From Roseibacillus sp. (GTDB lineage: Bacteria > Verrucomicrobiota > Verrucomicrobiia > Verrucomicrobiales > Akkermansiaceae), in assembly GCA_965242925.1 (NCBI GenBank), contig CBDEUM010000025.1:1-17479 (forward strand): 17,479 nt of DNA, written 5' to 3'. Made by a program: the position numbers and the translations under genes. Of the stretch, positions 1 to 16,842 are shown piece by piece. Each line of letters begins with the position of its first letter. The first letter of the stretch is position 1. The notes under the pieces are model-generated. The model made no database searches. It was not told the origin of the DNA and saw only the letters and a list, made by a program, of their open reading frames with translations.

Positions 1-192
1 TGGATCAAAACCCACCAAAGCCGCTTCGTCTTCCTGCACGCGCGTCTTCACCAGCGTGAGGCATATGAGCCCCACTGCCTATCGGAAGTTCTACAGGGTG
101 AACCCCTGGCGCCAGCAGTTCCGGTCTCCTCCACCCCGGCATGGTTGTCCCCAGAAGGGCTCCCCCCTCTCCCCTGCCTGCCTTCTGGCCCT

Positions 193-1737
193 TCACTCCC
201 TCTCCGGCAGGAGAGGAGTAGTGAGGTCCACCCGTTCATAATTTGACCCAAACTGCTCGCAAATCAGGTTGGAACTGATGCGGGCCGACTCGTAGATGGT
301 AGGAAGGCCGCTCCCGGGGTGCGTGCCTCCTCCGGTCAGGTAGAGGTTGCGGAACTTCCCGTAGCGGTTGTGGGGGCGCAGGTAGAGAAGCTGGTCCAGG
401 GTGTGCTTCAGGTTGAAGGTGGCCCCCAGGAAAATCGATCCATCATCCTGCCAATCCTGGGGAGTGATGATCCGCTCCTCTACAATGTGCCTGCGGATAT
501 CCTTCATCCCGGTACGCGCCTCCACCCGGTCGAGCACCTTGTCCCGGTAGGGCGATCGCTTGCCAGACCAGTCAACCTGGTGACGCGTGTTAATGGTCGG
601 AACCAGGATGTAGAGATTGGAGTGTCCCTCCGGAGCCACCAGCGGATCGGTCACCGACGAGTTCCGCACGTAGATCGACATGTCCTCCGAAACAGTCCGC
701 TCCTCCTGGATCTCGTTCAAATTCCGGCGATAGTCGTCAGCGAAGAGAATCTGGTGATGAGGCTCATCTTCATAGAGAGTATCGAGGCCGAGGTAGAGCA
801 TGAAGGTCGAGCAGGAGAACCCCTTCCGGCGCACCTTTTCCTCTGGCACATTGTGGCCATTCAGCAACTGGGTGACCGCATACCCATAATCGGCATTGAG
901 CACAACCGCATCCGCCTTGATGACCTCCCCCGACTCAAGGAGCACTCCACTGGTTTCCCATCCCTGGCTCAAAACTTCCCGGACGCAGGAATTGAGCCGG
1001 ATCTCAGCCCCTTCCTGCTCCGCAATCTCCGCCATTTTTTCGGAGATCCGGCTCACGCCTCCCTGCACGTGATAAATTCCGAACCGATACTCAAGGAATG
1101 CGAGAATGCTGAAAAGAGCAGGGCATTTCCAGGGAGACATCCCCAGATACTTCGACTGGAAGGTGAATGCTAGTCGCAGCCGCTCATCACTAAAATACTC
1201 TCCAAGGAGTGAGAACACGGACTTCTTGGTCGCCACGTAGGGGAAGGCACTGAGCAACCGCTTATTGAACAGGTCCCGCAGGTTGCTGTATGAGTTCCTC
1301 AGGCAGGGAATGAGCACCCGGATCTTCTCTTCATGATCCGCCATGAAGCGCCCGAAGCCCTCGCTTTCCCCGGGGAACACCCGTTCAATTTCCGCTGCCA
1401 TCTTGCCGGGATCGGAAGTGGTATCGAGCGAGGTCTCGCCCCACTTCAATCGCGTCATGGGATCGAGTTGCACTAGGTCAAGTTCCTCATCCAGGTTACG
1501 ACCCGCTTCCTGGAACATCTCCTCGAGAGTAAACTTCTGATGAAGAAAGGTCGGCCCGGTGTCGAAGGCATAGGGCCCCGCCTCGAGGCAGGCACTGCGT
1601 CCGCCTACCCGTCCGGCCCTCTCCAAGACCGTGACCCTGAATCCACGGTGCGCCAAGATCATGGCCGCCGTGAGCCCTCCAGGACCAGAGCCCACCACAA
1701 CAATGTGGCGATCCGCGTTCTTACGGGAAGCCGTCAT
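193..1737 (-). CDS. crtN: Phytoene desaturase-family enzyme, CrtN-like (4,4'-diapophytoene desaturase)
   Basis: 514 aa. FAD-binding VVVGSGPGG, FDTGPTF, LAFTFQSKYLGMSPW, C-terminal GGGTHPGSGLPTIYESARIS typical of CrtN/CrtI. Context of crtP/Q/O favours C30 CrtN over C40 CrtI. Confidence 0.85.
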   Translation of the reverse strand: MTASRKNADRHIVVVGSGPGGLTAAMILAHRGFRVTVLERAGRVGGRSACLEAGPYAFDTGPTFLHQKFTLEEMFQEAGRNLDEELDLVQLDPMTRLKWGETSLDTTSDPGKMAAEIERVFPGESEGFGRFMADHEEKIRVLIPCLRNSYSNLRDLFNKRLLSAFPYVATKKSVFSLLGEYFSDERLRLAFTFQSKYLGMSPWKCPALFSILAFLEYRFGIYHVQGGVSRISEKMAEIAEQEGAEIRLNSCVREVLSQGWETSGVLLESGEVIKADAVVLNADYGYAVTQLLNGHNVPEEKVRRKGFSCSTFMLYLGLDTLYEDEPHHQILFADDYRRNLNEIQEERTVSEDMSIYVRNSSVTDPLVAPEGHSNLYILVPTINTRHQVDWSGKRSPYRDKVLDRVEARTGMKDIRRHIVEERIITPQDWQDDGSIFLGATFNLKHTLDQLLYLRPHNRYGKFRNLYLTGGGTHPGSGLPTIYESARISSNLICEQFGSNYERVDLTTPLLPERE

Positions 1738-1752
1738 ATTCCGCTACAATCA

Positions 1753-2403
1753 CTAAAATCTTGTTGCCTGATATCCTGTCAAATCTGGGCTGAAAAGCTC
1801 AGGGCCAAGAGGGAGCCTCCTCACCACCTTGTCAAATGCGATCTGCTGGGAAGATCCATCACTGAACATCACTTCAATGGCCTGCAGGCTCCCTTTCTCC
1901 CTTCCTGTCACAAAAGTGAGCACCCGAATACCGCGTTCCGGCTGCCCGCGGGGCTGCACATTGATACGGTGGCTCTTGCTGTCGCTCTTGACCCCCAGCA
2001 GATGATACCTCCGTTGGAATTCTTCCCAGCTGCGAGGGAATTCCTGTGCCAGGATCGCCATGCTGCTCCTGCTTTCCCGGGCCAGGGCCCTCTCGTATTG
2101 CTTGGAACGCGGTCGTATGATGAGCAATTGTCCGCCCTTGCCGGTCACTATGGTCCGCGGAGGATCCCCGGTCTGCCAGCGAAAACGTCCGCCCCGCCGA
2201 TGATCGACCCACAGCACACCCCTCTGCCGGGTGGCTGACTTCAAGCTGGTCAGCTTTCTAGTCTGGGTGAATTCAATCCTGAGGGTGTCCACTCCCTCGT
2301 TGGTGGCCAGCCAGCGCTTTACTACGCCCTCGCCCGGGTCGGCACGGAGCGGACCTGCACCCAGGATTCCGATAATCAGGAGGGGGACTGTCAGGCGCAG
2401 CAT
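1753..2403 (-). CDS. LolA-family periplasmic lipid/lipoprotein carrier
   Basis: 216 aa. Cleavable-looking signal peptide (MLRLTVPLLIIGILGAGPLRA/D), then FTQTR, G-x-L-W...RFRWQ...P...IV..G and C-terminal LFSP, matching the LolA pattern. Adjacent to the MMPL gene. Confidence 0.8.
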   Translation of the reverse strand: MLRLTVPLLIIGILGAGPLRADPGEGVVKRWLATNEGVDTLRIEFTQTRKLTSLKSATRQRGVLWVDHRRGGRFRWQTGDPPRTIVTGKGGQLLIIRPRSKQYERALARESRSSMAILAQEFPRSWEEFQRRYHLLGVKSDSKSHRINVQPRGQPERGIRVLTFVTGREKGSLQAIEVMFSDGSSQQIAFDKVVRRLPLGPELFSPDLTGYQATRF

Positions 2404-2414
2404 GTGGAGCGAAT

Positions 2415-4832
2415 CTAATCAGCGAGGCCGGAACTGTCAGTTCCCGATTTCGCTCCGGAATGAAGGAGCTGATACCACGAGGGCAGAACCACCACTGCGA
2501 CGAACGTGTTGACCAGAATACCCACTGCACACACTACTCCAAGACTCGAAAGACCATGGGCGGACGCAGTGGCTAGTGATCCGAATCCAATTGCCGAGGA
2601 CAGCCCGCAGAAGGTCACGGCCTTTCCCATGCCCCTGCGAACCGAGCCCAGGTTCCCACCACTTCGCCGCAGCGCAAACAACATGTGGATACTGAAATCA
2701 AGGCCGGTCCCGAAGAGAAGCGGTATCCCACAGACATTGAAGGAGTTCCACGAGAGAGGGGTCCACACTGTAAGGATAAGGAGTATAGCCGCTCCAAAGA
2801 CAAGGGCATGAAGCGTCAGGATCAACTCTCTCCAGGATCGATAAACCATCGCCAGAACGAAGGTCAGGATTAACAGCATGGGCAGGAACACCCTCCATAA
2901 ATCCTCCTGGATGCGCTCATTCAGGGCTGTTCCCAGGGAGGACAGGCTGGCTACATTGGCATTCTCGGCGCAGACGGCCTGAATCCAGGAGCGGTCTCGT
3001 GGCGCAACGGGCCGCAGAGCAGCAATGGCCGCAACCTTCCCGTCCTTTTCCCGCACGATCCGGTTAAACGTCCACTTTGCCAGGCTACCTGCCGGAAGCA
3101 CGGGGTTTTCGCCATCGAACTGCTCAAGGTAATTCTCCCAGGAACCCATTACGGTGCGGGTAAGGGCCATTCCCTCTTCCGTAAAGCCGGCTTCGTCTAT
3201 TTCAGAAAGGAGGCGCATGCGCTCTGCCAGAAGGCCCCGCACTACGTCCGCATTCCGGCGCTGGTGCCCGAGATGCGGCACCCAGGACGTGGGCAGGATC
3301 ACCCGGTCCAGCAATCCAGCTTCCCGGGCTCCGGACACTCTCTTGCCAAACGCCTCCAGGTGAATATGAAGCTGTTCAAAATCAGGAGCGGTAATCACAG
3401 CAGGAGTGGCTTCACCCTCGCCGTATAGCTCATCCCGCATTTCCTTCCAGGTCGCCAGCGCCGGGCTCTCCTTCATCCTGAAAGGGTGGAAATTAGGCTG
3501 CAGTCCTGGCCGCTCTCCGAAGATGATGGAGCCCAGGGCGCCCAGCAGCACGCAGACGGTCAGGACCGCCACAACCGCATTGCGCGGAGAGGACGGCACC
3601 CAGTCGCGGGAACCGGCGGAGGAAAGCCCCCGAGCCACTGCCGAGGCCACTGGCGCAAACCCGAACAACATGACAACCGCGCCCAGCAGGATACCGAGCG
3701 CAACCAGATTTCCAAGTTCCGCCAGACCCGGCAGCGAGCTCAGGTTAAGGACCAGGAATACGGCCGCGGTAGTGACTGCAGCCCATCCAATACCCGGCCC
3801 CACTGCCCGCCGAAGTTGCCGGGCACTGCCAGGAGTCCCCAGAGCCTCGCGATAAAGAACAATCCCATAGTCCACCGCCAGTCCCATCAGGATGGCTGCA
3901 AAGCCCACGCTCATGACACTCAACTCCCCAACCACCAGCTCTGCCAGGGTGAGGGTCACCGCAAGAATCCCCAACATGATCACCAGGAGCCATGAAAGTG
4001 GAACCAGTTGACGGTGTACCAGGAAAAACAGGACAGAAATCAGAACTAGTGTGAGGAGGACGGACACCGTCATGTCCCGTTCCATTTCTGAACCAATTTC
4101 CGCCATGAAGGCGGGTGTTCCCGTCAGTCCGACTTCGACCTGCAACTCATCCTCCAACTCCGCATTCCATTCCTGAAGCCACTCCGTGACCACGACCTCC
4201 ACCTGATCGAGCCAGTGCCTGACCTCCCGGTAGTCGGAAAAATCCACCCCTCTCCCCTCCACAAAAAATATTTCAAAATCACCGACTTCGGACCGCATGG
4301 GATCAGCCGCAAAAACACCCTCCGTTCCTTCTTCCGGTCCGACCTGCGTCAGCCCCAGCGGGTCATAGCTCAGAATCAAGGCCTTCTCCGCCGTGACGGC
4401 ATCGTTGATTCGCAATAGCGAGTCCTTGAGCACCTCCCCTGATTGCCCGGAGGCGAGTTTCCCGTCCAATTCCGCTAGTTGCTCCGGGGGCGAATTGAAC
4501 CAGGCCCATGCGAGGAACGCGCCCCCCTCCGCCACCATCGTTTCGAAATCCAGTTCCTGGAACAAATCGCCGACCAATTGGTCCTGCTCCCGAAGTAGCG
4601 CTGCCAGCGCACCGCCAGCCTCCTCCACTGCCCAACTGGATTGGCCTCGAACCGTTACGATAAGTTGTGCATCCCGGTTGAAATAACGATTAACCTGCTC
4701 CAGGCCCCGCGCCTCTGGAAGATCCTCCGGTAACAGCTCATAGATGTCCGAGGAGAACCGTACCCGCATGATGGCAAGGACCGCGAGGGTGCCGACCAGC
4801 AACACTGCCAAAAACGGGAAAAGCCTCCTCAT
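2415..4832 (-). CDS. MMPL/RND-family lipid exporter
   Basis: 805 aa. N-terminal TM, large soluble loop, TM bundle, second loop and second bundle. RND motifs GLAVDYGI and GTGLDFSIH, plus LTGTP before TM2. ATGA overlap with crtO at 4829-4832. Confidence 0.88.
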   Translation of the reverse strand: MRRLFPFLAVLLVGTLAVLAIMRVRFSSDIYELLPEDLPEARGLEQVNRYFNRDAQLIVTVRGQSSWAVEEAGGALAALLREQDQLVGDLFQELDFETMVAEGGAFLAWAWFNSPPEQLAELDGKLASGQSGEVLKDSLLRINDAVTAEKALILSYDPLGLTQVGPEEGTEGVFAADPMRSEVGDFEIFFVEGRGVDFSDYREVRHWLDQVEVVVTEWLQEWNAELEDELQVEVGLTGTPAFMAEIGSEMERDMTVSVLLTLVLISVLFFLVHRQLVPLSWLLVIMLGILAVTLTLAELVVGELSVMSVGFAAILMGLAVDYGIVLYREALGTPGSARQLRRAVGPGIGWAAVTTAAVFLVLNLSSLPGLAELGNLVALGILLGAVVMLFGFAPVASAVARGLSSAGSRDWVPSSPRNAVVAVLTVCVLLGALGSIIFGERPGLQPNFHPFRMKESPALATWKEMRDELYGEGEATPAVITAPDFEQLHIHLEAFGKRVSGAREAGLLDRVILPTSWVPHLGHQRRNADVVRGLLAERMRLLSEIDEAGFTEEGMALTRTVMGSWENYLEQFDGENPVLPAGSLAKWTFNRIVREKDGKVAAIAALRPVAPRDRSWIQAVCAENANVASLSSLGTALNERIQEDLWRVFLPMLLILTFVLAMVYRSWRELILTLHALVFGAAILLILTVWTPLSWNSFNVCGIPLLFGTGLDFSIHMLFALRRSGGNLGSVRRGMGKAVTFCGLSSAIGFGSLATASAHGLSSLGVVCAVGILVNTFVAVVVLPSWYQLLHSGAKSGTDSSGLAD

Positions 4833-5332
4833 GACTCTGCCTGGTCTCCCCCCCGTTCAAGCTGATCCAGAAGGCGGGCCAGGCGGTGCCGGGTGTGTCG
4901 CTGGACAATGATGCAGGGAAGGTTCGAAAGCAGAGCATAACCCGCGATGATCATCGCTGCCACCGGCCAGGGATTCCAGAGGAGCGTGATGAGCACACAG
5001 GGTATCTGGACATAATGAGCCAGCTCGCCGCGACAGGTTTCCACCCGGAAGGAACGCATGTAGTGGACATCACGGCTTAAGATCGACCGCTTCGGGAAAC
5101 CTCCCAGCCACGGAGCACCGTCCGGCAACAGGTTTTTCCATGCCCTGACCACGAAGAGGCCTTCGTAGATTCCCCCTCCCCGCTCCCACCTGCGCTCTCG
5201 GAAGAGGAACGACTCAGGGTGGAAACCATCCCCGGAAGCGCGTGTCAGGATCCATGAGGGCACCAGGTGACAAAGCGGAATCATCACAAGATTAAGGACC
5301 ACGATCAGAACACCGGGAAGGTCAAGTAACAT
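4829..5332 (-). CDS. crtO: Glycosyl-4,4'-diapocarotenoate acyltransferase (CrtO family)
   Basis: 167 aa, hydrophobic. WKNLLPDGA, ETCRGELAH and NLPCIIVQR..R.RL match CrtO-type motifs. Overlaps crtQ by 11 bp. Confidence 0.85.
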   Translation of the reverse strand: MLLDLPGVLIVVLNLVMIPLCHLVPSWILTRASGDGFHPESFLFRERRWERGGGIYEGLFVVRAWKNLLPDGAPWLGGFPKRSILSRDVHYMRSFRVETCRGELAHYVQIPCVLITLLWNPWPVAAMIIAGYALLSNLPCIIVQRHTRHRLARLLDQLERGGDQAES

Positions 5333-6422
5333 GACGCCCCTTCCATTTGATGGTTCCCCCGCTCGTCTTCCTCCTTAGAGCCTGAAAGAACACAGCCTGG
5401 TAAAAGAGGAGCCCAACAGGAAAAACGATCGCGGTCAGGAATGAATACGTGCCGGACGAGCGGAAGAGATACGCACACTGAAGAACCCAGAGAAGGTAGA
5501 GCGCCCCCATAACGGCCGCGAGAGCGGGGGAAGCAAGGGCCATGAAACAAACCGGCACCGCCGACATGAAGAGCCCCGACATCCAGATCGAAACTCCTGC
5601 CAGGGCAGAAGTGGCCGTGTTGCGGGCACCCGAAATTGCACCCTTGCTCCATCCCGCCACAAGATCCCGAACCCCTCCCGGAAACATTCGCATGGTAATC
5701 GTGTTCTTCCCGAGCCAGCACCGACGGGGAATCCCGGCGGCGGAGAAATGCCGGGAGAGATGGAAATTCTCCAGCACTTCCCCCTTCACCCGGGAGTGTC
5801 CCTCAACCAGGTCGTAATGTTCACGCGAAACCAGCATGACCTGCCCGAAGAGCCCGATTTCCCGTGCCGCCTCTCCCTTGAGAGTAAAGGCATTCATCCC
5901 CAGGATCATGATCACGTTGAAGAAGGCCGACAGCTGCTCATAAGGAGCACGCACACAATGATAGGGACAGATCGAATGAACCTTCGGTTCGCCCTCCGTG
6001 AGACCGGCAAGACGCCCAAATCCCCCCCCCACGAACCGGGTATCCGCATCGAGGAAGAGCAACCAGTCACCGGTAGCAATCTGGGCTCCCTGATAGCAGG
6101 CCCACGGCTTTCCATGCCAACCTTCCGGAGGAGACTGCCCGTGTAAAACCCGCGCTCCCTGCCGGGCGGCCACCGCTGCCGTCTCATCCTCCGACTGGTC
6201 ATCCACAACGATCACTTCGTGCAGGTCGTGTCCCCTCAGCGAGTCAAGAAGACCTCCTATGTTCTCTTCCTCATTACGAGCTGGCACCACAATTGAGATT
6301 CGCACGTCCTCCCGCCTCCCTCCACCTATTGCCGGCACCCGGCGAAATCGGGCAAACATCACCCACGCGACCAGCCAGCAGAAAAAGCTGAGTCCGGTCA
6401 CAATCCAGAGGAATGTCTCCAT
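5322..6422 (-). CDS. crtQ: GT2 glycosyltransferase, CrtQ-like (diapocarotenoate glycosyltransferase)
   Basis: SIVVPARNEE, VVDDQSED, GWHGKPWAC, FLDADT (DxD), with N- and C-terminal TM helices. Start moved from 6665 to ATG 6422 (METFLWIV, 366 aa), 22 bp after the crtP stop; the longer ORF overlaps crtP. Confidence 0.85.
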   Translation of the reverse strand: METFLWIVTGLSFFCWLVAWVMFARFRRVPAIGGGRREDVRISIVVPARNEEENIGGLLDSLRGHDLHEVIVVDDQSEDETAAVAARQGARVLHGQSPPEGWHGKPWACYQGAQIATGDWLLFLDADTRFVGGGFGRLAGLTEGEPKVHSICPYHCVRAPYEQLSAFFNVIMILGMNAFTLKGEAAREIGLFGQVMLVSREHYDLVEGHSRVKGEVLENFHLSRHFSAAGIPRRCWLGKNTITMRMFPGGVRDLVAGWSKGAISGARNTATSALAGVSIWMSGLFMSAVPVCFMALASPALAAVMGALYLLWVLQCAYLFRSSGTYSFLTAIVFPVGLLFYQAVFFQALRRKTSGGTIKWKGRHVT

Positions 6423-6444
6423 GGCCTGCAGGAACGCGATAGCG

Positions 6445-7971
6445 TCACTTCCTCCGGTTTTCCTCCCGAGCGACGACCCGGTCGGACACTTTCTGTCCGC
6501 ACAGGATGGCCATCGGCATTCCCCCGCCCGGATTGACACTGCCCCCGGTAAAGAAGAGGTTCCGATACTTGCTCGACTGTTTGGGCGCCTTGAACGCCTG
6601 GTTTCTCTTCCAGTCCGACACCACCCCGTAAATGGAGCCCCCGTTCGAATTGTAAAGACGTTCAATGTCGGGAGGGGTCAGCAGATCCTCGACGATCGTA
6701 TGCTTGCGAAGGTCTGTCAGCCCCATCCTCTCAAGCTTGTCGAGCACCCGTTCCTTCAACGCGAGGTAGTCCTCCATGGTGTGCGGGCTTTCCGGGTTAA
6801 TGGGTGGAATATGCGGAAGGATCTTAAGGTTATCGCAACCTTCCGGTGCCTTGCTCGGATCGGTTCGGGTCGGCGCCACCAGGTAAATGGTTGGATCCTC
6901 AGGCAATTTCCCTTCCTGGAAAACGGAGTCAAAATGCTTTTTCTGGTCCTGCGAGTAAAAGAAGTTGTGGTGGGCCAGCTCACGGTAAACCCGGTTCGTT
7001 CCGAGATGAAGGACCAGCCCGGAGCAGGCAGGAGCAAAGCGCTGCAGCTTCTTCATGAAGGACGGAGGCTCACTCAGCAATTTGCGGTAGGCGGGGAGAA
7101 CCTCCATGTTGCACACCACGTAGTCAGCAACCAGGCGCGACCCCCCTTCGAGGGTCACCCCGCTCACCATGCGTCCTCCGTTCCGGTCGATGGTGCCCAC
7201 TTCCTGTCCCAGACGCACCCTGATGCCGAGATCCTCAACGAGCCGGCCCAGTCCCCTCGCCAGATTATACATCCCGCCTTTCACATACCACAGGCCGTAA
7301 TCAAACTGGATGACAGGCATCATGTTCATGTAGCCCGGAGAATCGAGCGCTGAAGAACCCACATACTTGATGAAATATTCAAAGATCCGTCTGAGGTAGT
7401 CGCTATCGAAGTAATTGGCGATGGACTCGGACATCCGGTTGCGGTGGTCCATCTTGAAAAGCAGCTTGCGCCAGCCGTAATGACGGATGAACTCCCAGAG
7501 GTTGTCCAACCCCTTGGCAAAATAACCGTCGTTCACCAGTTCATACTGGCCTCTGGCGTAGGTGAGGAAGTTCTGGAACTGACGCCAGTGATGGGCTGTC
7601 TCGCCCGGCAGCTTGTTCAACTCCCCCCGCATGACCTCCGGATCGTCATCCAGATCGAGCACCATCCCGTCTTCGAAGAAATTGCGCCAGTGAGGATTAA
7701 CCGCCTCCAACTCGATGTAGTCCTCCATCTTCCTGCCCGAGCGCTCGAAGAGAGTACGGAAGAATTGTGGGAGGGTGAAGATGGAAGGACCCAGGTCAAA
7801 ACCAAATCCGTCGATCTCCTTGAAGTTGAGTTTACCCCCGATCCTGTCGTTTTTCTCGATGATTTCGACATCAAATCCTTCCGCGCGAAGGGAAATCGCT
7901 GCGGAGAGCCCCCCGAGTCCGGCCCCGATCACGAGAACGGACTTATTACGTTGCGAAGAGGAACCAGCCAT
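6445..7971 (-). CDS. crtP: Diapolycopene/diaponeurosporene oxygenase (CrtP/CrtNb)
   Basis: IGAGLGGLSAA, GFGFDLGPSI, YFIKYVGSS, GLWYVKGG and GGSVNPGGGMPM are characteristic of CrtP. Likely start ATG 7971 (MAGSSSQRNK, 508 aa), just before the FAD motif; the ORF extends up to 8100. Confidence 0.88.
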   Translation of the reverse strand: MAGSSSQRNKSVLVIGAGLGGLSAAISLRAEGFDVEIIEKNDRIGGKLNFKEIDGFGFDLGPSIFTLPQFFRTLFERSGRKMEDYIELEAVNPHWRNFFEDGMVLDLDDDPEVMRGELNKLPGETAHHWRQFQNFLTYARGQYELVNDGYFAKGLDNLWEFIRHYGWRKLLFKMDHRNRMSESIANYFDSDYLRRIFEYFIKYVGSSALDSPGYMNMMPVIQFDYGLWYVKGGMYNLARGLGRLVEDLGIRVRLGQEVGTIDRNGGRMVSGVTLEGGSRLVADYVVCNMEVLPAYRKLLSEPPSFMKKLQRFAPACSGLVLHLGTNRVYRELAHHNFFYSQDQKKHFDSVFQEGKLPEDPTIYLVAPTRTDPSKAPEGCDNLKILPHIPPINPESPHTMEDYLALKERVLDKLERMGLTDLRKHTIVEDLLTPPDIERLYNSNGGSIYGVVSDWKRNQAFKAPKQSSKYRNLFFTGGSVNPGGGMPMAILCGQKVSDRVVAREENRRK

Positions 7972-8120
7972 GGATGAGCAGTCCCTTGTAGGGCTACCGT
8001 GAACAATGATTGGCGAGATCTCCTTCGATTCAACCGCAAATAAAGAATCCAGATCTCTTCTCACGGCACAAAGGTTGAGGCCTGCCTCATTCTCGGCCAC
8101 AGTCCTCTGCAGATCAGGCC
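7972..8120. promoter_or_regulatory. Divergent intergenic/promoter region between the crtP operon and aldH
   Basis: 149 bp between head-to-head starts. Contains AGATCTC at 8016-8022 and 8051-8057 and the inverted repeat TGAGGC-CT-GCCTCA at 8076-8089. Promoter hexamers not confidently placed. Confidence 0.5.
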
Positions 8121-9497
8121 ATGTTTACCTCTCCATGCGATCCCATCTCCGTATTCGAGGACCAGCGCATATTCTTTGAGAGCGGACAATCGCGGGACCT
8201 GGCCTACCGCCAAGACAGACTCAAAAGACTTGCCCGGGAGCTTGAAAGACGCAGCGACGATGCTCTCGCCGCCCTCCATGCCGATCTGGGAAAGCCAGCC
8301 CTTGAGGCCTGGCTGGCAGAGATCCACTTTTTGCAGGCCGAACTGAAATACTGCCTTAAACACCTCAGGGGCTGGCAGAAGCCGCAACGCGGCCGGAATC
8401 CCTTCTACTTCTGGCCCGCGCGCAGCGAAATCCGCCGGGAACCCTTTGGCCAGGTTCTCATTGCCTCCCCCTGGAACTACCCGCTGCAACTCGCCCTCAG
8501 CCCCCTCCTTTCCGCCGTGGCAGCCGGGAACTGTGTGATCCTGAAGCCCTCTGAACTTGCCCCCGCCACCTCCGCCTTTCTGTCCGAACTGATCTCCTCG
8601 GTCTTTGAACCCGGACACGTTGCCCTCATCGAGGGTGGTCCGGAAACCGGAGCCCGCCTGCTGGAACTTCCTTTTCAGTTCTTCTTCTATACGGGTGGGG
8701 AGAATACAGGACGTCTCTATGCGGAGGCTGGAGCCCGGCATCTTGCCCCTGTCATCCTGGAGCTGGGAAGCAAGTGCCCGTGCATTCTCGACCACGGTGT
8801 CAATCTCAGGCGGAGCGTAGAACGCATTGTCGCCGGGAAGTTCTTCAATGCCGGCCAGACCTGTATCGCGCCCGACTTCGTGGTCCTCCCTGCGGACCTG
8901 CACGACGAGTTCCTCGAACGTGCGGAGGCGGAGATCCTGTCAAGCTACGGGTCAAGTCAGGGCCCCGACCTCGCACGGATTATCAATTCGACTCACTATC
9001 AGCGACTGCAGAACCTCCTTCCTCCTGATGCTCTCACGATCGGACAGGACGATTCTGAGAACCTCTTTTTCGCTCCACGCCTCCTGCCTGATACCCCCTG
9101 GGACAGCCCCGCCATGCAGGAAGAAATCTTCGGACCGGTCCTGCCCCTCATCCCCTATGAAGACCTCTCCGAGGCGCTGGATCACATGCAGGCCCTGCCA
9201 TCTCCTCTTGCCCTCTACGTCTTTTCCCATCACCAGGAACGAGGCGACCAGGTAGCATCTGCGCTACCCTCCGGGTCGATCTGCTTCAACGACGTCATGA
9301 AGACCGGGACCAACCACTTCCTTCCCCTCGGCGGACTGGGGCGAAGCGGCATGGGCCGCTACCGGGGGCGTTCCGGATTCGAGAGCTTTACCTATCAGCG
9401 ACCGGTCACCCGGCGCTGGCTTTGCAAGGATCCCTTCCTCGTCAAGGCCCCCTACCAGAACCAGCTGGGACGCCTGCGGAAGTTCCTGAAGTTCTGA
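8121..9497 (+). CDS. aldH: Aldehyde dehydrogenase, probably diapocarotenoid aldehyde dehydrogenase (AldH/CrtNc-like)
   Basis: 458 aa. PWNYP, LKPSE, LELGSKCP (catalytic Glu), NAGQTCIAPD (catalytic Cys), EEIFGP, PLALY. Substrate inferred from being divergent to crtP. Confidence 0.8.
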   Translation: MFTSPCDPISVFEDQRIFFESGQSRDLAYRQDRLKRLARELERRSDDALAALHADLGKPALEAWLAEIHFLQAELKYCLKHLRGWQKPQRGRNPFYFWPARSEIRREPFGQVLIASPWNYPLQLALSPLLSAVAAGNCVILKPSELAPATSAFLSELISSVFEPGHVALIEGGPETGARLLELPFQFFFYTGGENTGRLYAEAGARHLAPVILELGSKCPCILDHGVNLRRSVERIVAGKFFNAGQTCIAPDFVVLPADLHDEFLERAEAEILSSYGSSQGPDLARIINSTHYQRLQNLLPPDALTIGQDDSENLFFAPRLLPDTPWDSPAMQEEIFGPVLPLIPYEDLSEALDHMQALPSPLALYVFSHHQERGDQVASALPSGSICFNDVMKTGTNHFLPLGGLGRSGMGRYRGRSGFESFTYQRPVTRRWLCKDPFLVKAPYQNQLGRLRKFLKF

Positions 9498-9644
9498 GCC
9501 AAGCCGTAGTCCTGGCTTCAAGGCACCCCCACCTACCGTCCGGAGGGCGGGTCAATGCCCCGTCTCTTCTAAATCGCCCTCTTTTGGAGCAAGCTGCTGA
9601 CATTAAGTTGTTTAAGAAAAATCAACTCTCTGCCTATTTTGGTC

Positions 9645-9680
9645 TTTCCATTTTAAACTAGTTAGACTAGTTTATATCTG
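9645..9680 (+). promoter_or_regulatory. TA promoter with palindromic operator
   Basis: Perfect inverted repeat TAAACTAGT-tag-ACTAGTTTA at 9654-9674. Candidate -35 TTTCCA (9645-9650), 17-bp spacer, -10 TAGTTT (9668-9673). 9601-9680 is AT-rich (23/80 G+C by hand count). Confidence 0.65.
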
Positions 9681-9890
9681 GTGAGACGAATTGGAATCTT
9701 TGAGGCCAAGACCAAGCTCAGTGCCATCGTGGCACAGATCATGTCCGAAGGTGAGGTGTTCCAGATCACCAAGCATGGCCGCACAGTAGCCGAACTTCGT
9801 CCCCCCACCGGGCAACCAGTCTCCCCTCAGCGGGGCACCGCCAGTGGTCCCGGTTTCTGGATGGCCGCCGACTTCGACGAACCTTTGTAA
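9681..9890 (+). CDS. Phd/YefM-family type II antitoxin (possibly C-terminally clipped)
   Basis: 69 aa, GTG start. IGIFEAKTKLS...GE...ITKHGRTVAELRP is the Phd/YefM signature. Tail RG...FWMAADFDEPL resembles antitoxins paired with PIN toxins. Confidence 0.88.
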   Translation: MRRIGIFEAKTKLSAIVAQIMSEGEVFQITKHGRTVAELRPPTGQPVSPQRGTASGPGFWMAADFDEPL

Positions 9891-10085
9891 CTACCTTTTA
9901 ACTGCCCACCTTTCCTGCCTCGCCCCTTCCAAAGCAGACGCGGGACAAGACTGTTCACCCCTTAACCGTTCAAGCCTTGGCACAAGATTACCCCTGCCCC
10001 TACCTGACCCACCCTTAGAGCAATCCCCCGTCCAGAGTTCACACTGTCCCCTCCCTTTACTGCTACCCTGCAAACCCCCTGCCCT

Positions 10086-10117
10086 GCCGGACCCCGGGAC
10101 TCGTCCCGGGGTCTGGT
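10086..10117. repeat. Strong GC-rich inverted repeat/hairpin
   Basis: GACCCCGGGAC (10090-10100) and GTCCCGGGGTC (10103-10113) are perfect reverse complements, extendable by 4 pairs (2 G-U) to 10086-10117. Confidence 0.8.
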
Positions 10118-10164
10118 TGCTTCAGGAGTACTGAGTCCTCTCCCTCCACCCGTTCCCCCTCCCC

Positions 10165-10551
10165 ATGAACCTCCTGCTCGACTCCAATACGGTGGTCTGG
10201 TTTCTCGAAGGAGCCTCCGAACTTTCCGAAACTGCAGCCGGGCTCATTGAGAGCCTCGACTCCCGCTCCCTCATTAGTTCCGTTACTCCATGGGAGCTTG
10301 CGGTAAAAACCGGCCTGGGCAAGCTGCGTCTTCCCTACAGTCTTGGCGAGGAGTTCGATTCCACCCTGCAATCAATGGGTTTCGAACTCCTCCCCCTGAG
10401 CCAGGCTGCCCTTGAGCGCACCGCACGCCTCCCCGGTCACCACCGTGATCCATTCGACCGCCTTCTGGTTGCCGAAGCCCTCGAACAGAGCGCGGCCCTC
10501 GTCAGTCCCAACGAGATCCTTGACGATTACGGCGTCAACCGCATCTGGTGA
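10165..10551 (+). CDS. vapC: PIN-domain VapC-family toxin
   Basis: 128 aa. MNLLLDSNTVVW, S.VTPWELAVK..LGKL and LPGHHRDPFDRLLVAEA carry the PIN acidic residues. Downstream of a Phd antitoxin. Confidence 0.9.
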   Translation: MNLLLDSNTVVWFLEGASELSETAAGLIESLDSRSLISSVTPWELAVKTGLGKLRLPYSLGEEFDSTLQSMGFELLPLSQAALERTARLPGHHRDPFDRLLVAEALEQSAALVSPNEILDDYGVNRIW

Positions 10552-10560
10552 CACCCTCGA

Positions 10561-11409
10561 TCAGGGATCGATTTCTCCCTCCGCCAAGGCACGGAAGGCG
10601 GACCGGAGCCGGAACGTCACTTCACCCGGAGCATCGGGCAGAACTACGCCATCCACAGCCCTGATGGCCTGCACCTCACGCGTTGTTGAAGTAAGAAAGG
10701 CCTCCCTCGCCCGGGCGAGGGCACTCACCGGTAGCTCCTTCTCCCGGACCTCAAGCCCTTCCTTTTCGCACAACTCGATGACGAGGGCCCTCGTTACGCC
10801 AGCCAGGCACCCGCTCTCCAGAGGTGGCGTTACTAATAGACCCTCGCTGACGAGAAACACATTGGAACCAGTCCCTTCACACAGTTCCCCCTTTGTGTTG
10901 GCAAAGATGGCCTCCCCTCCCCCCTTCGCCCTGGCCGCCGCCAGAGCCACCACGTTTTCTCCATAGGAGGTCGTCTTCACCCCCGCCAGAGCCCCGTTTT
11001 CATTTCGGGAATAGGGAACCACGGAGACATCCTCGGTCTCGCCCCACTCCACCGTGGGAGAAGCGGCCACCAGAGTGGTCTCCCCCGCCTCGCCTCGCTC
11101 GCTGCCCAGGGGCGCCAGCCCTCCCGTCACCGTGATGCGAAGGCGCGCCCGGCACTCAACCAATCCGTTGGCCCGCAGGACCTCGAGGCAGGCGCTCCGG
11201 AGCTCCTCCAGTGAGCCCACTGAAAGCCCCATCGTTCCAGCCGATCGTTGCAACCGCTGGTGATGACGAGTGAAGGCAAAGGGAGTCCCCGCGCAGGAAA
11301 GCATCGTTTCAAACACTCCGTTGCCAACCGTAATTCCATGATCGAAAGGCGAAATCCCTCCCTCGGCCGCGTCTCGCAGGGAGCCATTGATCCAGACCGT
11401 CGCTTCCAT
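10561..11409 (-). CDS. Class IV PLP-dependent aminotransferase (IlvE/PabC/D-amino acid aminotransferase family)
   Basis: WINGSL, FDHGITVGNGVFET, H.QRL..SA, PLP lysine in GVKTTSY, EGTGSNVF, CLAGVTR, EAFLTST. Start set at ATG 11409 (282 aa). Substrate not determinable. Confidence 0.88.
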   Translation of the reverse strand: MEATVWINGSLRDAAEGGISPFDHGITVGNGVFETMLSCAGTPFAFTRHHQRLQRSAGTMGLSVGSLEELRSACLEVLRANGLVECRARLRITVTGGLAPLGSERGEAGETTLVAASPTVEWGETEDVSVVPYSRNENGALAGVKTTSYGENVVALAAARAKGGGEAIFANTKGELCEGTGSNVFLVSEGLLVTPPLESGCLAGVTRALVIELCEKEGLEVREKELPVSALARAREAFLTSTTREVQAIRAVDGVVLPDAPGEVTFRLRSAFRALAEGEIDP

Positions 11410-11478
11410 GAACCGGAGCACATCGTATCCTGGGAAGGTTTGCAACCCCGACCCAAACACCGATGATCGCTTTCAGTC

Positions 11479-12063
11479 TTGAACTACCTCGCCCATCTCT
11501 ACCTCGCCGGACCCACCGATGCCTCCCGCATCGGAAATCTCCTGGGCGACTTTGTGAAGGGCACCCCCACCTCCCTGGAGGGGGACTATCCCGTGGAAGT
11601 CATCGCAGGCATCGTCATGCACCGCAAACTCGACCGCTTCACGGACCGCCACGAGCAGTTCCTCCGAGCTCGCAGCCTGCTCGCCCCGGAACGAAGGCGT
11701 TTTGCTGGAATCGTGGTCGATATCTTTTTCGACCACTTCCTGTCCCGGCACTGGCACGAGTATTCCGTGCAACCACTTCCCCTCTTCATCGAGGCGGTTC
11801 ATGCCTCGCTGCAACGCCATCCCGACTGGCTCAGCCCGAAACTAGCCGCCGTGGCTCCTCGCCTGCGCTCGGAAAACTGGCTTCATCGTTACGGCTCCCC
11901 GGAGGGCATTACCCTTACCCTGGAACGGGTCGCCCGGCGCTCTCCCCGTATAGCGCCCATCAAGGACTCGATCGAGGACCTCTTGGGGAAATACAACACC
12001 TTTGAAGAAACCTTCCTCCGCTTTTTCCCGGACGCCCGCGCCTTTGCGGCCACTCTTCTCTGA
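11479..12063 (+). CDS. acpH: Acyl carrier protein phosphodiesterase (AcpH family)
   Basis: 194 aa, TTG start. MNYLAHLYLA, GNLLGDFVKG, GIVMHRKLDRFTDRH, GIVVDIFFDHFLSRHW, NWL..Y, F..FFP. Confidence 0.92.
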   Translation: MNYLAHLYLAGPTDASRIGNLLGDFVKGTPTSLEGDYPVEVIAGIVMHRKLDRFTDRHEQFLRARSLLAPERRRFAGIVVDIFFDHFLSRHWHEYSVQPLPLFIEAVHASLQRHPDWLSPKLAAVAPRLRSENWLHRYGSPEGITLTLERVARRSPRIAPIKDSIEDLLGKYNTFEETFLRFFPDARAFAATLL

Positions 12064-12087
12064 CAGTTCTCCAGACGGGCATCCCCT

Positions 12088-15000
12088 TCAGGAAGGCTGC
12101 AGCTTGGTCTCCAGCAGTTCACGGAACTCCCGCAGGGCATCTTCCAGGAATCTGAGCTCCCGTTCGAACGCGAACACCAGTTCGCTCGCCGCCACGAGGT
12201 CACCCGCGGCAACCCGTTCATCCAGTTCCGTCACGCAATCCCATGTGCGACTGGCGCAGTAGTTCCCCACCAGGCCCTTCAGGCGGTGGGCTGCTTCGTG
12301 CAGAGCCCCGGCATCACCCTTCCGCTCGGCCTCCATGAGACTCTCCCGCATTGCTCCCGATTCTTCCTCGAAAATGCGGATGAGTTCACACATCAACAAC
12401 TCATCCCCGATACGACTTCGAAACCCGTCCGGATCAAAGACCTTCTCATCCGGTTCCTTCCCGTCGCACTGTATCTCTTCCGTTTCGGACTCGGAAACCA
12501 CCTCCACCCCGATGGGCTCGCCCACGGCCGCGGTTCCAGATCCAAAGCGCTCCACCACCCCGTAGAATTCGTCCGATTCGATAGGTTTGGAGATGTAATC
12601 GTCCATTCCGGCGTTCAGGCACTCCTCGCTGTCCCCGGGCATGGCATACGCAGTCATGGCGATGATGGGAACGTGCCCACCCGTCTTCTGTTCCCGTGCC
12701 CGGATTTCCTGGGAGGCCTCGAATCCACTCATCAGCGGCATCTGTATGTCCATCAGGATCACGTCGAAGTCCTCCTTTCTTGCACGGTCCACCGCTTCCA
12801 GTCCGTTCTCGACCACCGTGACCCGGTGTCCCCGCCTTTCAAGCAGGCGAACCGCGACCAGTTGATTGACCTTCCCGTCCTCCGCCAGGAGAATTTCCAT
12901 CGGAGCCACCCCGCTCTGATGCTCCCCGGCCTCGCCATCCCTCAGCCGCGGCAATCTGTTCCCCATTCCCATGGTGAGCATGATGGCATCGAGCAACATC
13001 GAGTGCTTGATCGGCTTGTTCACGACCTTCATAATTCCCAGTTCACCGATCTCCCGGTCCGGGGTGCCCTCGCTCACTGAGCCGAGCAGGATCATTGGCA
13101 GGTCAGACCAACGCGACTGTCCCCGGATGCGCCTCGCCAGCTGAAGTCCATCCGTACCCGGCATGGCGCGATCGATGATCCCCAGTTTCACCTCCTGTCC
13201 TTCCCTCTCCAGCTCCTCCAGCTTGGCCAGGGCGCTTTCCGCATCCGGACAGAGGATGCCGGTCATTCGCCAGTTGTTGAGCATTTCGCCCACGATCTCC
13301 CGTTGGGTTGTATTGTCTTCGACCACCAGGACGGGGAGTCCATCCAGCGACCGCAGGATGTCGGCCTCGCTGCTCTTCTCCGTCGCCCCCACATCAAAGA
13401 TTCCCGTGAAATAAAAGGTGCTGCCCTCTCCCTCCACGCTCTCCACCCAGATCTCGCCTCCCATCTTCTTCACGATGCGCCTCGAGATAGCCAATCCCAG
13501 TCCAGAACCTCCAAACTCCCTCGTGGTGGAACTGTCAGCCTGTTCAAACATCTCGAAGATCGTTTCCGTCCGGTCGGCCCGCACTCCGACCCCCGTATCC
13601 CTCACCTTGAACAGAAGTTCGATCTGCCCATCCAGTTTCTTCCCAGCCTCCACACTTACCAGAACCTCCCCCTGGTCGGTGAACTTCAGAGCATTACCCA
13701 CCAGGTTGACAACCACCTGGCGCAACCGGGTCAGATCGCCTGCCAGAATCCTGGGAACCGCAGGATCCACCCGGAAGGCCAACTCCAGATCCTTCTCGGC
13801 CGCACGGGGAAAAAGGGTATGGAGCATGTCGCCCACTGAGCCACGCAGATCAAACTCCCGACGCTCCAGTTCCAGTTTGCCCGCCTCGATCTTGGAGTAA
13901 TCGAGAATGTCGTTCAGCAGCATGAGGAGTGCCTGGGCCGACTGCTCCACAAGAATCTGGTAATGGCGTTGCTCCTCGGTGAGATTCGTTCCCAAAGTCA
14001 GCTCCGTGATCCCCATGATGGCATTCATGGGGGTGCGTATTTCATGGCTCATGTTGGCAAGGAAATCACCCTTCGCCTTGCTGGCCTCCTTGGCCCGCTC
14101 CATGGCCTCCCTCAGTTTTTTCTGCGCCTCCCCCAGCCGAGCCCTCATCTGATTGAACTCGTGGCTGAGCTCGGATAGCTCATCGCGCCCGGCCACCGAG
14201 ATGGGCGCCTCGGTCGTTCCCTTCCCGATTTGCTTGGTGGCTTCCACCAACCTCTTCATCCTCCGGGAGACAGGAAAAACAACCCAGAGCATTACCGCCA
14301 CTCCCAGAATGGTTGCCATTGCGGCAGCCAGAATGACATTGTTCCGCAACTGTCGGACCGGAGCGAGCAGGGTGTCCGCCTCCGCAGTGTGGACCGCCAG
14401 CCAGCCAAGACTGCTCACTATCCCCTCTTCCGGGGGAACCGCATAGGTGTAAACCTGTTCCCGACCGGATGCATCCTTCTCGAGAACCTGTGTCCCCTCC
14501 AGTCTGCCGCTCTCGTTGGGCACAAGATATCGACGCCCATCAGACAGGGTCCGGGTTCTTCCCCTGCCACCGATCCGGATCAACTGACCTTCACTGTTCA
14601 GAAGCACCATGCCTTGATCCCGTCCCCCCCGTCGCGCGTAAGAGTCGACTACATCCAGCACCTCCTGCAGGTTGATCTTCACGCGCATGATCCCCACGAA
14701 CTCGCCCTCCTGGTCATTGATCCTGAGGCAGAAGGAGATGGAAACCTCCTCCTGGCCGTTCCCATCCCGGCCTACGGTCACATCTCCTATGTAGGGACTG
14801 CTGGCCTTTGCCTCCTGCCACCAGACGCTGCCATCGTGCAGATACCCGGCAGTGGGACTGCTCTGGGCCACGATCCCGCCGAAGGCATTGGTCAGCATCA
14901 CCCCATGGAAGATCTCCGTGCCCCCGCTCAACTCGGTCATCTTGTCGACGGTGGAGCCGAGCTCACGTGAGAGGGAGCGGTCCAGGACCCCGTCCGGAAG

Positions 15001-15315
15001 GTTCCTTCGCCTCTCCTCGTCACTCCAAACCAGCGCAATCTCCTCCACGAGGCCCTCCTTTTTGCGCAGCATCTCGTTCGACTTGACCAGAGTGGCAATC
15101 ACCTCCTCGTCCTTGGAGAACTTCTCCCAGGTGTTGGTGCGCGCCCTGAGCAGGCGGTCGATCTCCTCCTGCATGGAGCGAACCTCCGCCATGGCAGCGG
15201 TCTGGATGGCTGCGCGAAGCTGGTCCTGCGAAGCCTTCACCACATAGACACCCACCAGCCAGATCAGAGCCGGCGAAATGCAGGTGGTGAGAAGCAACTT
15301 GGTTGAAAGCCTCAT
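12088..15315 (-). CDS. Hybrid sensor histidine kinase (TM-Cache-like sensor-TM-HAMP-HisKA-HATPase-REC-REC-Hpt)
   Basis: 1075 aa. HAMP GRDELSELSHEFNQM, H-box FLANMSHEIRTPMN, NLVGNALKFT, DTGVG, GGSGLGLAI. Two receivers (IIDRAMP...KP; LMDIQMP...KP). Hpt AAHRLKG. Confidence 0.93.
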   Translation of the reverse strand: MRLSTKLLLTTCISPALIWLVGVYVVKASQDQLRAAIQTAAMAEVRSMQEEIDRLLRARTNTWEKFSKDEEVIATLVKSNEMLRKKEGLVEEIALVWSDEERRRNLPDGVLDRSLSRELGSTVDKMTELSGGTEIFHGVMLTNAFGGIVAQSSPTAGYLHDGSVWWQEAKASSPYIGDVTVGRDGNGQEEVSISFCLRINDQEGEFVGIMRVKINLQEVLDVVDSYARRGGRDQGMVLLNSEGQLIRIGGRGRTRTLSDGRRYLVPNESGRLEGTQVLEKDASGREQVYTYAVPPEEGIVSSLGWLAVHTAEADTLLAPVRQLRNNVILAAAMATILGVAVMLWVVFPVSRRMKRLVEATKQIGKGTTEAPISVAGRDELSELSHEFNQMRARLGEAQKKLREAMERAKEASKAKGDFLANMSHEIRTPMNAIMGITELTLGTNLTEEQRHYQILVEQSAQALLMLLNDILDYSKIEAGKLELERREFDLRGSVGDMLHTLFPRAAEKDLELAFRVDPAVPRILAGDLTRLRQVVVNLVGNALKFTDQGEVLVSVEAGKKLDGQIELLFKVRDTGVGVRADRTETIFEMFEQADSSTTREFGGSGLGLAISRRIVKKMGGEIWVESVEGEGSTFYFTGIFDVGATEKSSEADILRSLDGLPVLVVEDNTTQREIVGEMLNNWRMTGILCPDAESALAKLEELEREGQEVKLGIIDRAMPGTDGLQLARRIRGQSRWSDLPMILLGSVSEGTPDREIGELGIMKVVNKPIKHSMLLDAIMLTMGMGNRLPRLRDGEAGEHQSGVAPMEILLAEDGKVNQLVAVRLLERRGHRVTVVENGLEAVDRARKEDFDVILMDIQMPLMSGFEASQEIRAREQKTGGHVPIIAMTAYAMPGDSEECLNAGMDDYISKPIESDEFYGVVERFGSGTAAVGEPIGVEVVSESETEEIQCDGKEPDEKVFDPDGFRSRIGDELLMCELIRIFEEESGAMRESLMEAERKGDAGALHEAAHRLKGLVGNYCASRTWDCVTELDERVAAGDLVAASELVFAFERELRFLEDALREFRELLETKLQPS

Positions 15316-15400
15316 CGGGATCGGATCAACCCTGTATACCCACGCAGTTCACCCTGCGCCAGCAAAACGCCGACTTCCCTCCCGACTGGAACCAGAGAGT

Positions 15401-16762: not shown

Positions 16763-16842
16763 CTAGCCCGAGTATACGCCATTCCTCAGGAACTTCGTAC
16801 AGAAATCGTCACCCGAAGAAATGACACCACGAACCCCTGCTT

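Follow-up and report, generated by a model that had tools for sequence, protein, structure and literature searches.

What are the genes for an MMPL/RND transporter and a LolA-like periplasmic protein doing inside a carotenoid operon? The question is raised by a 17,479-bp stretch of Roseibacillus sp. DNA (contig CBDEUM010000025.1; ~59% G+C), the whole of which is referred to here as the window. Six genes are packed tightly on its minus strand, with gaps of no more than 22 bp and two overlaps, in the order crtP-like, crtQ-like, crtO, MMPL/RND, LolA-like and crtN-like, such that the pair of transport genes sits between crtO and crtN. On balance, we lean towards the answer that this pair belongs to the aryl-polyene type of export cassette for pigment lipids and was recruited to bring acyl-glycosyl C30 carotenoids to the outer membrane. 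The six genes, a divergent aldH gene and the region between aldH and the operon are as follows, with junctions read from the sequence:

6445..7971, minus strand: crtP-like gene; ATG at 7971, TGA at 6447-6445; 508 amino acids (aa)
5322..6422, minus strand: crtQ-like gene; ATG at 6422, 22-bp gap from crtP, stop ending at 5322; 366 aa
4829..5332, minus strand: crtO; ATG at 5332, 11-bp overlap with crtQ, stop ending at 4829; 167 aa
2415..4832, minus strand: MMPL/RND gene; ATG at 4832, 4-bp ATGA overlap with crtO, stop ending at 2415; 805 aa
1753..2403, minus strand: LolA-like gene; ATG at 2403, 11-bp gap from the MMPL gene, stop ending at 1753; 216 aa
193..1737, minus strand: crtN-like gene, the last of the operon; ATG at 1737, 15-bp gap from the LolA-like gene, stop ending at 193; 514 aa
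8121..9497, plus strand: aldH, divergent from the operon; PF00171, 249.4 bits
7972..8120, no strand: 149 bp separating crtP from aldH, presumed to hold the promoter by position alone

The gene places and all of the junctions described in an earlier, sequence-only reading of the window match the sequence exactly. That reading had also placed the transport pair within a tightly packed operon for C30 acyl-glycosyl-carotenoids, a view borne out by these junctions and by Pfam and NCBIfam profile scans of the window's open reading frames (ORFs), from which family assignments were made. The crtN-like and crtP-like products both pass TIGR02734 (phytoene desaturase family; 460.3 and 341.5 bits, respectively, with a cut-off of 238.1). 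Both are CrtI-family flavoenzymes, told apart by the weaker CrtI-family score and by gene order, and the product of 6445..7971 is probably the diapocarotenoid oxygenase CrtP. The crtQ-like gene encodes a membrane-anchored family-2 glycosyltransferase (PF00535, 68.6 bits) that reaches no NCBIfam equivalog (HpnB, 89.8 bits vs 379; CruG, 74.8 bits vs 600), while crtO belongs to the glycosyl-4,4'-diaponeurosporenoate acyltransferase family (PF18927, 90.6 bits vs a cut-off of 27.3). The divergent aldH is an addition to the previously described gene list and part of the same pathway: it likely carries out the step from 4,4'-diapocarotenal to the acid, the role of AldH in the C30 pathway being described in PMC9907078. 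With aldH, the known C30 enzyme set (crtN/crtP/aldH/crtQ/crtO) is complete, as in the staphyloxanthin-type and Planctopirus limnophila pathways, with the glycosyltransferase and aldehyde dehydrogenase identified at family level, neither reaching an equivalog model.

No squalene or dehydrosqualene (C30 precursor) synthase, whether CrtM or HpnCDE/Sqs, was found among the scanned window ORFs. Because a supplementary table of PMC9907078 lists HpnD and Sqs in Roseibacillus genomes (of seven genomes, CrtN in 7, CrtP in 6, HpnD in 7 and Sqs in 5), the synthase gene is probably encoded elsewhere in the genome. In the same table, the accession numbers of Roseibacillus CrtN and CrtP are mostly five apart, as the operon described here predicts. 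A sigma-70 consensus scan gave no match in the crtP/aldH intergenic region, and a promoter and terminator consensus scan of positions 1-9700 gave 1 promoter-like site (2.7 expected) and 7 terminator-like sites (8.7 expected).

Is the position of the pair an accident of this one genome? One genome per GTDB species was scanned with a query based on an alignment of 23 MMPL relatives. This gave 299 pattern matches, 246 of them encoding a relative, and the best 80 of the 246 loci were analysed with flanks of up to 10 kb. Stop-to-stop ORFs were annotated using BLASTP and profiles built from the loci; gap lengths in related loci are approximate, as start codons were placed by alignment. The 80 loci are nearly all from Verrucomicrobiota and encode MMPLs with 82% to 31% identity to that of the window. 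In 58 of the 80 (56 of the 73 with at least 1 kb of downstream sequence), the gene that immediately follows the MMPL gene is LolA-like. MMPL identity is at least 46% in 54 of the 80 loci. In 24 of these 54 close loci, crt genes are present no more than 10 kb away, and in every one of the 24 the LolA-like gene is directly downstream of the MMPL gene. Ten of the 80 loci (L001-L010) have the complete order crtP-crtQ-crtO-MMPL-LolA-crtN. A crtO was detected in 23 loci, and in 12 of these it overlaps the MMPL gene by 4 bp or 1 bp. Because of these recurrences, the arrangement is not attributable to chance. Within the Roseibacillus group the junctions that follow one another from crtO onwards are nearly fixed, at -4 or -1, then 11-12 and then 12 bp.

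The linkage also persists in other gene orders. In the second, an oppositely oriented aldH is followed by crtN, crtP, crtQ, crtO, MMPL and LolA (e.g. L021, L025, L037 and L053); the third is the same except that 1.3-3.3 kb of unrelated genes lie between crtO and the MMPL gene (L016, L044, L049 and L050). L014 has the order of the window minus the downstream crtN. A divergent aldH stands beside crtP or crtN in 20 of the 80 loci, and the window crtP shares 74-92% identity with its counterparts in crt-linked loci.

The window crtN (193-1737) is only 44-45% identical to the crtN upstream of crtP in L011, L016, L021, L025, L037, L044, L049 and L053, and 49% identical to a minus-strand copy in L038, while the crtP genes of those same loci are 74-77% identical to that of the window. 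The downstream crtN found in the window and the crtN upstream of crtP may not be orthologues, and the PMC9907078 table lists two CrtN proteins in 4 of the 7 Roseibacillus genomes. In L005 (13097-14583) and L006 (13096-14648), crtN is broken into two or three ORFs, and in L014 no crtN is found downstream of the LolA-like gene (past 13093); these may be frameshifts, assembly errors or gene losses.

What kind of transporter is encoded? The MMPL/RND product matches PF03176 (72.6 bits vs a cut-off of 20.5), but it misses both HpnN models (TIGR03480, 148.9 bits vs 751.85; NF052374, 100.8 bits vs 1100) and the cut-offs for BstA (97.4 bits, far under 1400) and HAE3 (110.2 bits vs 351.9). Its closest solved relative by sequence is HpnN (5khn, 6wu0; profile E-value 1.1e-27). 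An AlphaFold2 model (pLDDT 81.0, pTM 0.73) likewise has HpnN as its top Foldseek matches (E 2e-20, TM about 0.6), followed by mycobacterial MmpL4, MmpL5 and MmpL3, such that HpnN, named as a precedent in the sequence-only reading, is the closest solved protein in both sequence and fold. Four residues are invariant in all 23 of the aligned relatives and are putative proton-relay residues: D321 and Y322 (transmembrane helix 4, TM4), D712 (TM10) and S745. D321 aligns with HpnN D344 and S745 with HpnN T818, both of which we take to be functionally important. The named closest homologues of both the MMPL and the LolA-like protein are from Roseibacillus, Akkermansiaceae and other Verrucomicrobiales, and a tblastn search of the MMPL against 72,556 plasmids gave no match. 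The MMPL is HpnN-like in its predicted fold and is the candidate exporter of carotenoid lipids at the inner membrane.

The second protein of the pair matches the Pfam LolA family (PF03548, 51.3 bits vs a cut-off of 23.6) and misses the NCBI lolA equivalog (TIGR00547, 36.5 bits vs 112). Its N-terminus is a Sec-type signal peptide, with a hydrophobic stretch followed by A-D-P, and the protein has no lipobox. Because of this hydrophobic N-terminus and the lack of any cysteine, it is expected to be a soluble periplasmic protein and not a lipoprotein. The top Foldseek matches of its AlphaFold2 model (pLDDT 85.8) are LolA structures, namely that of Pseudomonas aeruginosa (2w7q; E 3.4e-12, TM 0.67/0.74), with others from Xanthomonas campestris (8orn) and Porphyromonas gingivalis (8cgm; TM 0.70/0.79), so the original LolA-like call agrees with the fold as well as with the signal peptide. 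In a profile comparison with hhalign, the protein is about equally distant from E. coli LolA (probability 94.7) and E. coli ApeL (88.6), and a protein-atlas look-up returned Verrucomicrobiota LolA-family clusters only. It thus shares with housekeeping LolA the fold, the Pfam family and a periplasmic signal peptide. Housekeeping LolA partners the ABC transporter LolCDE, however, while the carrier of the window falls under the equivalog cut-off, is paired with an RND protein and is encoded inside pigment clusters.

A complex of the two proteins (MMPL residues 1-790 and mature carrier residues 22-216) was folded in three runs, together with three controls. The runs scored 0.58, 0.59 and 0.60 (median 0.59), compared to 0.00 for the best control; they share at least 90% of their contacts, the pLDDT of the partner is 75-76 and the output names no interface. 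In the calibration of the tool, the mark was reached by 116 of 157 complexes of solved structure and by 2 of the 215 pairs that were mismatched, but passes at scores of 0.60 or below came from only 18 of the 157, along with both of the passing mismatches, meaning that a pass in this range is more often wrong than right unless the pairing is already likely. The prediction lends weak support to an MMPL-LolA-like complex.

The more distant relatives point to a second class of pigment. MMPL identity is below 46% in 26 of the 80 loci, none of which is linked to crt genes. In 24 of these 26, at least one marker of a xanthomonadin/aryl-polyene-type cluster is present: an FkbO/XanB2-type chorismatase, a tryptophan-halogenase-like enzyme, a FabA-like dehydratase or a small lipoprotein that matches no known family. 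Genes for an AMP-ligase, a PlsC-type acyltransferase, a UbiE-type methyltransferase and a family-2 glycosyltransferase-deacetylase are often found as well. The gene order matches that of the Azoarcus arc cluster, given as hypothetical, exporter, lolA, acyltransferase, dehydratase and AMP-ligase in PMC3949708. Full scans of three distant loci showed no ketosynthase in their 10-kb flanks, and the aryl-polyene-type label therefore rests on accessory genes. The earlier statement that MMPL and LolA-like pairs occur in aryl-polyene pigment clusters therefore holds for the deeper relatives within this phylum.

In 13 of the 26 distant loci, the MMPL ORF continues C-terminally into a lipid-A-type acyltransferase domain (PF03279). 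These would be transporter-enzyme fusions, and they parallel the overlap between crtO and the MMPL gene in the window. The fused ORFs (L058, L064, L067, L069-L075, L077, L079 and L080) are 1090-1211 aa in length and are found in Limisphaerales/Pedosphaera-like Verrucomicrobiota. Two of the loci, L067 and L074, come from records titled 'uncultured Bifidobacteriaceae', yet their MMPL-LolA loci group tightly with those of Verrucomicrobiota; these bins are probably mislabelled or contaminated.

The small lipoprotein gene (cluster c25) is present in 16 of the 26 aryl-polyene-type loci and absent from the crt-linked loci. It lies directly upstream of the MMPL gene (L058, L063, L064 and L067-L080) and encodes a protein of ~165 aa with a lipobox (...GC) and no Pfam family. 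In the aryl-polyene-type version of the system, it may be the outer-membrane partner. It was rejected as a CrtO homologue (hhalign probability 0.1), and all that it was found to share with DUF3261/ApeN is the lipobox (hhalign probability 4.9 over 20 columns).

The relationship between the two groups of loci was examined in two trees. In the first, a quick maximum-likelihood tree of 78 MMPLs (LG+G4), the window falls inside a 12-member clade in which all members are crt-linked. This clade is itself part of a 54-row Verrucomicrobiales clade (100% SH-aLRT) that contains linked and unlinked loci mixed, with the aryl-polyene-type loci outside. The crt label needs 4 changes on this tree, compared to a shuffled mean of 21.5 (0 of 500 shuffles were as low). 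Most unlinked loci belong to one 21-row group (88% support), within which the crt-linked L016 nests. The second tree (34 rows, mixture model, with E. coli ApeM as outgroup) gives the same picture: the unlinked L022 is sister to the linked L016 with 100% support, and the crt-containing clade is nested in a grade of aryl-polyene-type MMPLs (99%, then 86%). With its length of 10, the branch to E. coli ApeM is extremely long, and both the rooting and the direction of transfer are no more than suggestions. A comparison with aryl-polyene exporters had been proposed in the sequence-only reading, and here the crt clade is indeed joined to aryl-polyene-type MMPLs, with full-length identities of 31-41%. 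As the unlinked pairs nest among the linked ones, they are orthologues that have lost the adjacency and not another paralogue.

Two further features of the trees and loci may be recorded here. L031 and L038 belong to one metagenome-assembled genome (JBLHKS010000005 and JBLHKS010000089) and are two separate crt-MMPL-LolA loci with MMPLs that are sisters in the tree; this double locus may be a duplication or the product of a mixed bin. L039, L047, L048, L051 and L052 form a well-supported MMPL subclade (47-50% identity to the window) with no adjoining LolA-like gene, and 4 of these 5 loci have less than 5 kb of upstream sequence.

How, then, does the pair compare with known systems? In aryl-polyene, xanthomonadin, arcuflavin and flexirubin clusters, an MMPL/RND gene similarly adjoins a LolA-like gene within a polyene-pigment cluster, near a lipid-finishing acyltransferase. 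An RND 'aryl polyene pigment extrusion' family is named in 10.1101/2020.12.19.423268, and the role proposed for the aryl-polyene pair is the delivery of pigment lipids to the outer membrane (PMC8253772, 10.1101/2020.12.19.423268, PMC3949708). Xanthomonadins are reported in the outer membrane (PMC3949708, including the title of a 2002 paper cited there). In the aryl-polyene lipids of Xenorhabdus, a polyene acid is carried on a sugar beside fatty acyl chains (10.1101/2020.12.19.423268); by analogy, an acyl-glycosyl diapocarotenoate would have the same general build. In the ape cluster of E. coli CFT073, MMPL/RND and LolA-like genes are adjacent, but the LolA-like gene comes first and a DUF3261-type receptor gene is also present, in contrast to the MMPL-then-LolA order of the window. 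An E. coli apeM mutant lost most of its pigment, while clean apeL and apeN mutants were not obtained (PMC8253772). Unlike aryl-polyene systems, the pathway of the window makes an isoprenoid C30 carotenoid and not a type II polyketide synthase product. Neither type II polyketide synthase genes (ketosynthase, acyl carrier protein, ketoreductase) nor genes for a LolB-like or DUF3261-like lipoprotein or a COG4648 (ApeG-like) protein were found in the window.

Like the MMPL proposed here, HpnN is an isoprenoid lipid transporter encoded with the biosynthetic genes of its lipid, and the RND/MMPL architecture and the TM4 aspartate are shared. The two differ in that the window MMPL fails both HpnN models and in the fold of the partner, which for the window MMPL is that of LolA instead of an MlaC-like or lipocalin-like one; no hpn or shc (hopanoid) genes are found in the window. 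Sterol transport by BstA, BstB and BstC also combines an RND inner-membrane protein with a periplasmic binder of an isoprenoid lipid, although the likeness of the MMPL to BstA is weak and the partner families, BstB and BstC, probably differ from the LolA-like partner of the window. For hopanoids, an RND protein acting with a periplasmic shuttle has been proposed, the partners being HpnM, HpnS and HpnT (PMC12324291).

The pathway may be pictured in three steps. In the first, CrtN would desaturate a C30 precursor at the inner membrane (the precursor genes lying outside the window), CrtP and AldH would oxidise one end to a carboxylic acid, CrtQ would esterify this acid to a sugar and CrtO would acylate the sugar, yielding an amphipathic glycolipid with one polyene and one fatty chain. 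In the second, the MMPL/RND protein, driven by the proton gradient, would take the finished lipid out of the inner membrane. In the third, it would hand the lipid to the soluble LolA-like carrier, which would shield the chains and ferry the lipid to the outer membrane. The enzyme roles, and these alone, follow from homology to tested proteins; the transport of the carotenoid to the outer membrane we infer, for four reasons. First, the pair is embedded in the operon with overlapping genes, and the overlap of crtO with the MMPL gene suggests that the last enzyme and the exporter are produced together. Second, the linkage persists through three gene orders. Third, the pair is akin to the exporters of a second class of outer-membrane polyene pigment. 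Fourth, the coupling of the exporter to the final acyltransferase recurs, by fusion in 13 loci and by overlap in the window.

Several observations weigh against export by the pair. Conservation of the crt linkage had been set as a refutation test in the sequence-only reading, and the result is divided: 24 of the 54 close loci are linked, and the remaining 30 have no crt gene in the available flanks. Upstream sequence reaches at least 5 kb in 15 of the 30 unlinked loci, and in 12 of the 30 both flanks are at least that long. In six unlinked loci that were scanned, the upstream genes are housekeeping genes unrelated to one another or to pigments (e.g. DUF1501, Fpg, EF-G, FadL, sulfatases and a two-component pair), and 9 of the 30 have no detectable LolA-like gene beside the MMPL gene. 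The pair is thus kept without physical linkage to crt genes. Carotenoid genes are documented for only one unlinked genome, that of L042 (contig NEUQ01000064), for which the supplementary table of PMC9907078 has crtN and crtP on another contig (NEUQ01000037). Among the contig prefixes listed in that table are 1 of 9 from unlinked loci (NEUQ01), 0 of 2 from aryl-polyene-type loci and 0 of 7 from crt-linked controls, and absence from the table is uninformative because none of the control prefixes is listed. To the same side of the balance belong the absence of an outer-membrane receptor gene from the window, the weak match between the MMPL and E. coli ApeM (28% identity over 163 residues, E 5e-8) and the fact that the LolA-like protein matches ApeL no better than it does housekeeping LolA. 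The transport function of the aryl-polyene pair is itself at the stage of a proposal (PMC8253772, 10.1101/2020.12.19.423268), and no transporter appears among the P. limnophila pigment mutants in the available text of PMC9907078.

Could the pair serve the pigment pathway in some way other than delivery to the outer membrane? It might release pigment into vesicles or the medium, remove toxic aldehyde or acid intermediates, do no more than flip the lipid across the inner membrane or supply acyl donors to CrtO. The crt-linkage evidence is the same for such roles as for delivery, and the coupling to an acyltransferase would also suit a part in the acylation step. Furthermore, no LolB-like or DUF3261-like gene is found in the window, as opposed to the one in the E. 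coli ape cluster and the small lipoprotein gene in 16 of the 26 distant loci. However, soluble carriers of the LolA fold are best known for crossing the periplasm with shielded acyl chains, the xanthomonadins are reported to be outer-membrane pigments (PMC3949708) and HpnN is reported, in a title cited in 10.1101/2020.12.21.423902, to be required for the outer-membrane localisation of hopanoids. We consider a non-delivery role unlikely.

A second alternative is that the pair is a general system for envelope lipid or lipoprotein trafficking in Verrucomicrobiales which stands beside crt genes in some lineages, the carotenoid not being its specific cargo. The 30 unlinked loci favour this explanation, as does the carrier, which shares its fold with housekeeping LolA and in profile comparison is no closer to ApeL than to E. 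coli LolA. The genes just downstream bear on it as well: convergent genes without a Pfam match (clusters c8 and c7) follow the LolA-like gene in 21 and 20 loci, respectively, both linked and unlinked (e.g. c7 at L016:13426-14301 and c8 at L018:3243-3560, minus strand), often with thioredoxin-reductase-like and photolyase-domain genes next to them, such that the pair keeps a neighbourhood of its own that is independent of crt. General trafficking nevertheless sits poorly with a pair that is embedded with overlaps between crtO and crtN, with a crt linkage that survives three gene orders and with deeper relatives of which 24 of 26 belong to another type of pigment cluster. The carrier, moreover, does not attain the score of the lolA equivalog, and housekeeping LolA works with LolCDE and not with an RND protein. 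We regard this explanation as quite improbable. It is highly improbable that the two genes were inserted as passengers and now play no part in the operon: gene order does vary among lineages and spacer genes part crtO from the MMPL gene in 4 loci, but both genes are intact in relatives whose MMPL identity ranges from 82% to 46%, junction lengths hardly vary within the Roseibacillus group and the putative proton-relay residues are invariant.

Returning to export as the preferred explanation, a broader proposal can be attached to it, one that we hold to be somewhat less likely than not. The pair may be a portable cassette for glycolipids that bear a conjugated polyene acid, indifferent to how the cargo is synthesized, which passed, within Verrucomicrobiota, to a C30 carotenoid operon out of a xanthomonadin/aryl-polyene cluster and which is coupled to the last acyltransferase by either gene fusion or gene overlap.

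Beyond aldH, a 96-aa ORF without a family match (9844-10134, plus strand) is followed by a PIN-domain (VapC-like) gene (10165-10551, plus strand); the two may be a VapBC toxin-antitoxin pair, and a PIN gene is found near aldH in seven Roseibacillus-group loci too. Positions 10561-17478 carry genes for a class IV aminotransferase, an ACP phosphodiesterase, a 1075-aa hybrid histidine kinase (Cache-HAMP-HisKA-HATPase, two receiver domains and Hpt), a DUF1552 protein and a DUF1588/DUF1585 protein. The DUF genes, which stand at the far end, are in keeping with a PVC-group bacterium. The hybrid kinase and aminotransferase genes (clusters c16 and c17) are syntenic in Roseibacillus loci.

The sequence-only reading knew of no characterised carotenoid pathway of this kind, and a literature search, which did not extend to subscription journals, found nothing linking a carotenoid cluster to an MMPL/LolA-like pair. 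The words MMPL, LolA, RND and transporter are absent from PMC10448405 and from the main text and two supplementary files of PMC9907078, the P. limnophila C30 paper, in which the transport pair goes unmentioned and Fig. S7 colours enzyme genes only; in 10.1101/2020.12.21.423902, such words occur only in a cited title on HpnN. The module and the idea of it are already known from aryl-polyene, xanthomonadin and hopanoid systems; what is new is the class of cargo and the evolutionary link.

In bacteria with two membranes, the route by which strongly hydrophobic isoprenoid lipids arrive at the outer membrane is largely an open question. HpnN is the one transporter established for hopanoids, and it was not until 2025 that periplasmic partners for it were put forward (PMC12324291). 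In Methylobacterium, carotenoids are reported from the outer membrane (10.1101/2020.12.21.423902), and no transporter for outer-membrane carotenoids was found described in the literature searched. The Roseibacillus operon supplies two directly testable candidates: an RND pump and a small soluble carrier, the latter expected to bring a coloured ligand with it on purification. The build-up of pigment in the inner membrane is thought to limit the yield of engineered carotenoids, and an export module might aid their production. A shared export module would also connect the biology of carotenoid and aryl-polyene pigments and, if the pair is indeed a portable cassette, it would be the first dedicated mover of carotenoids from the inner to the outer membrane in a bacterium.

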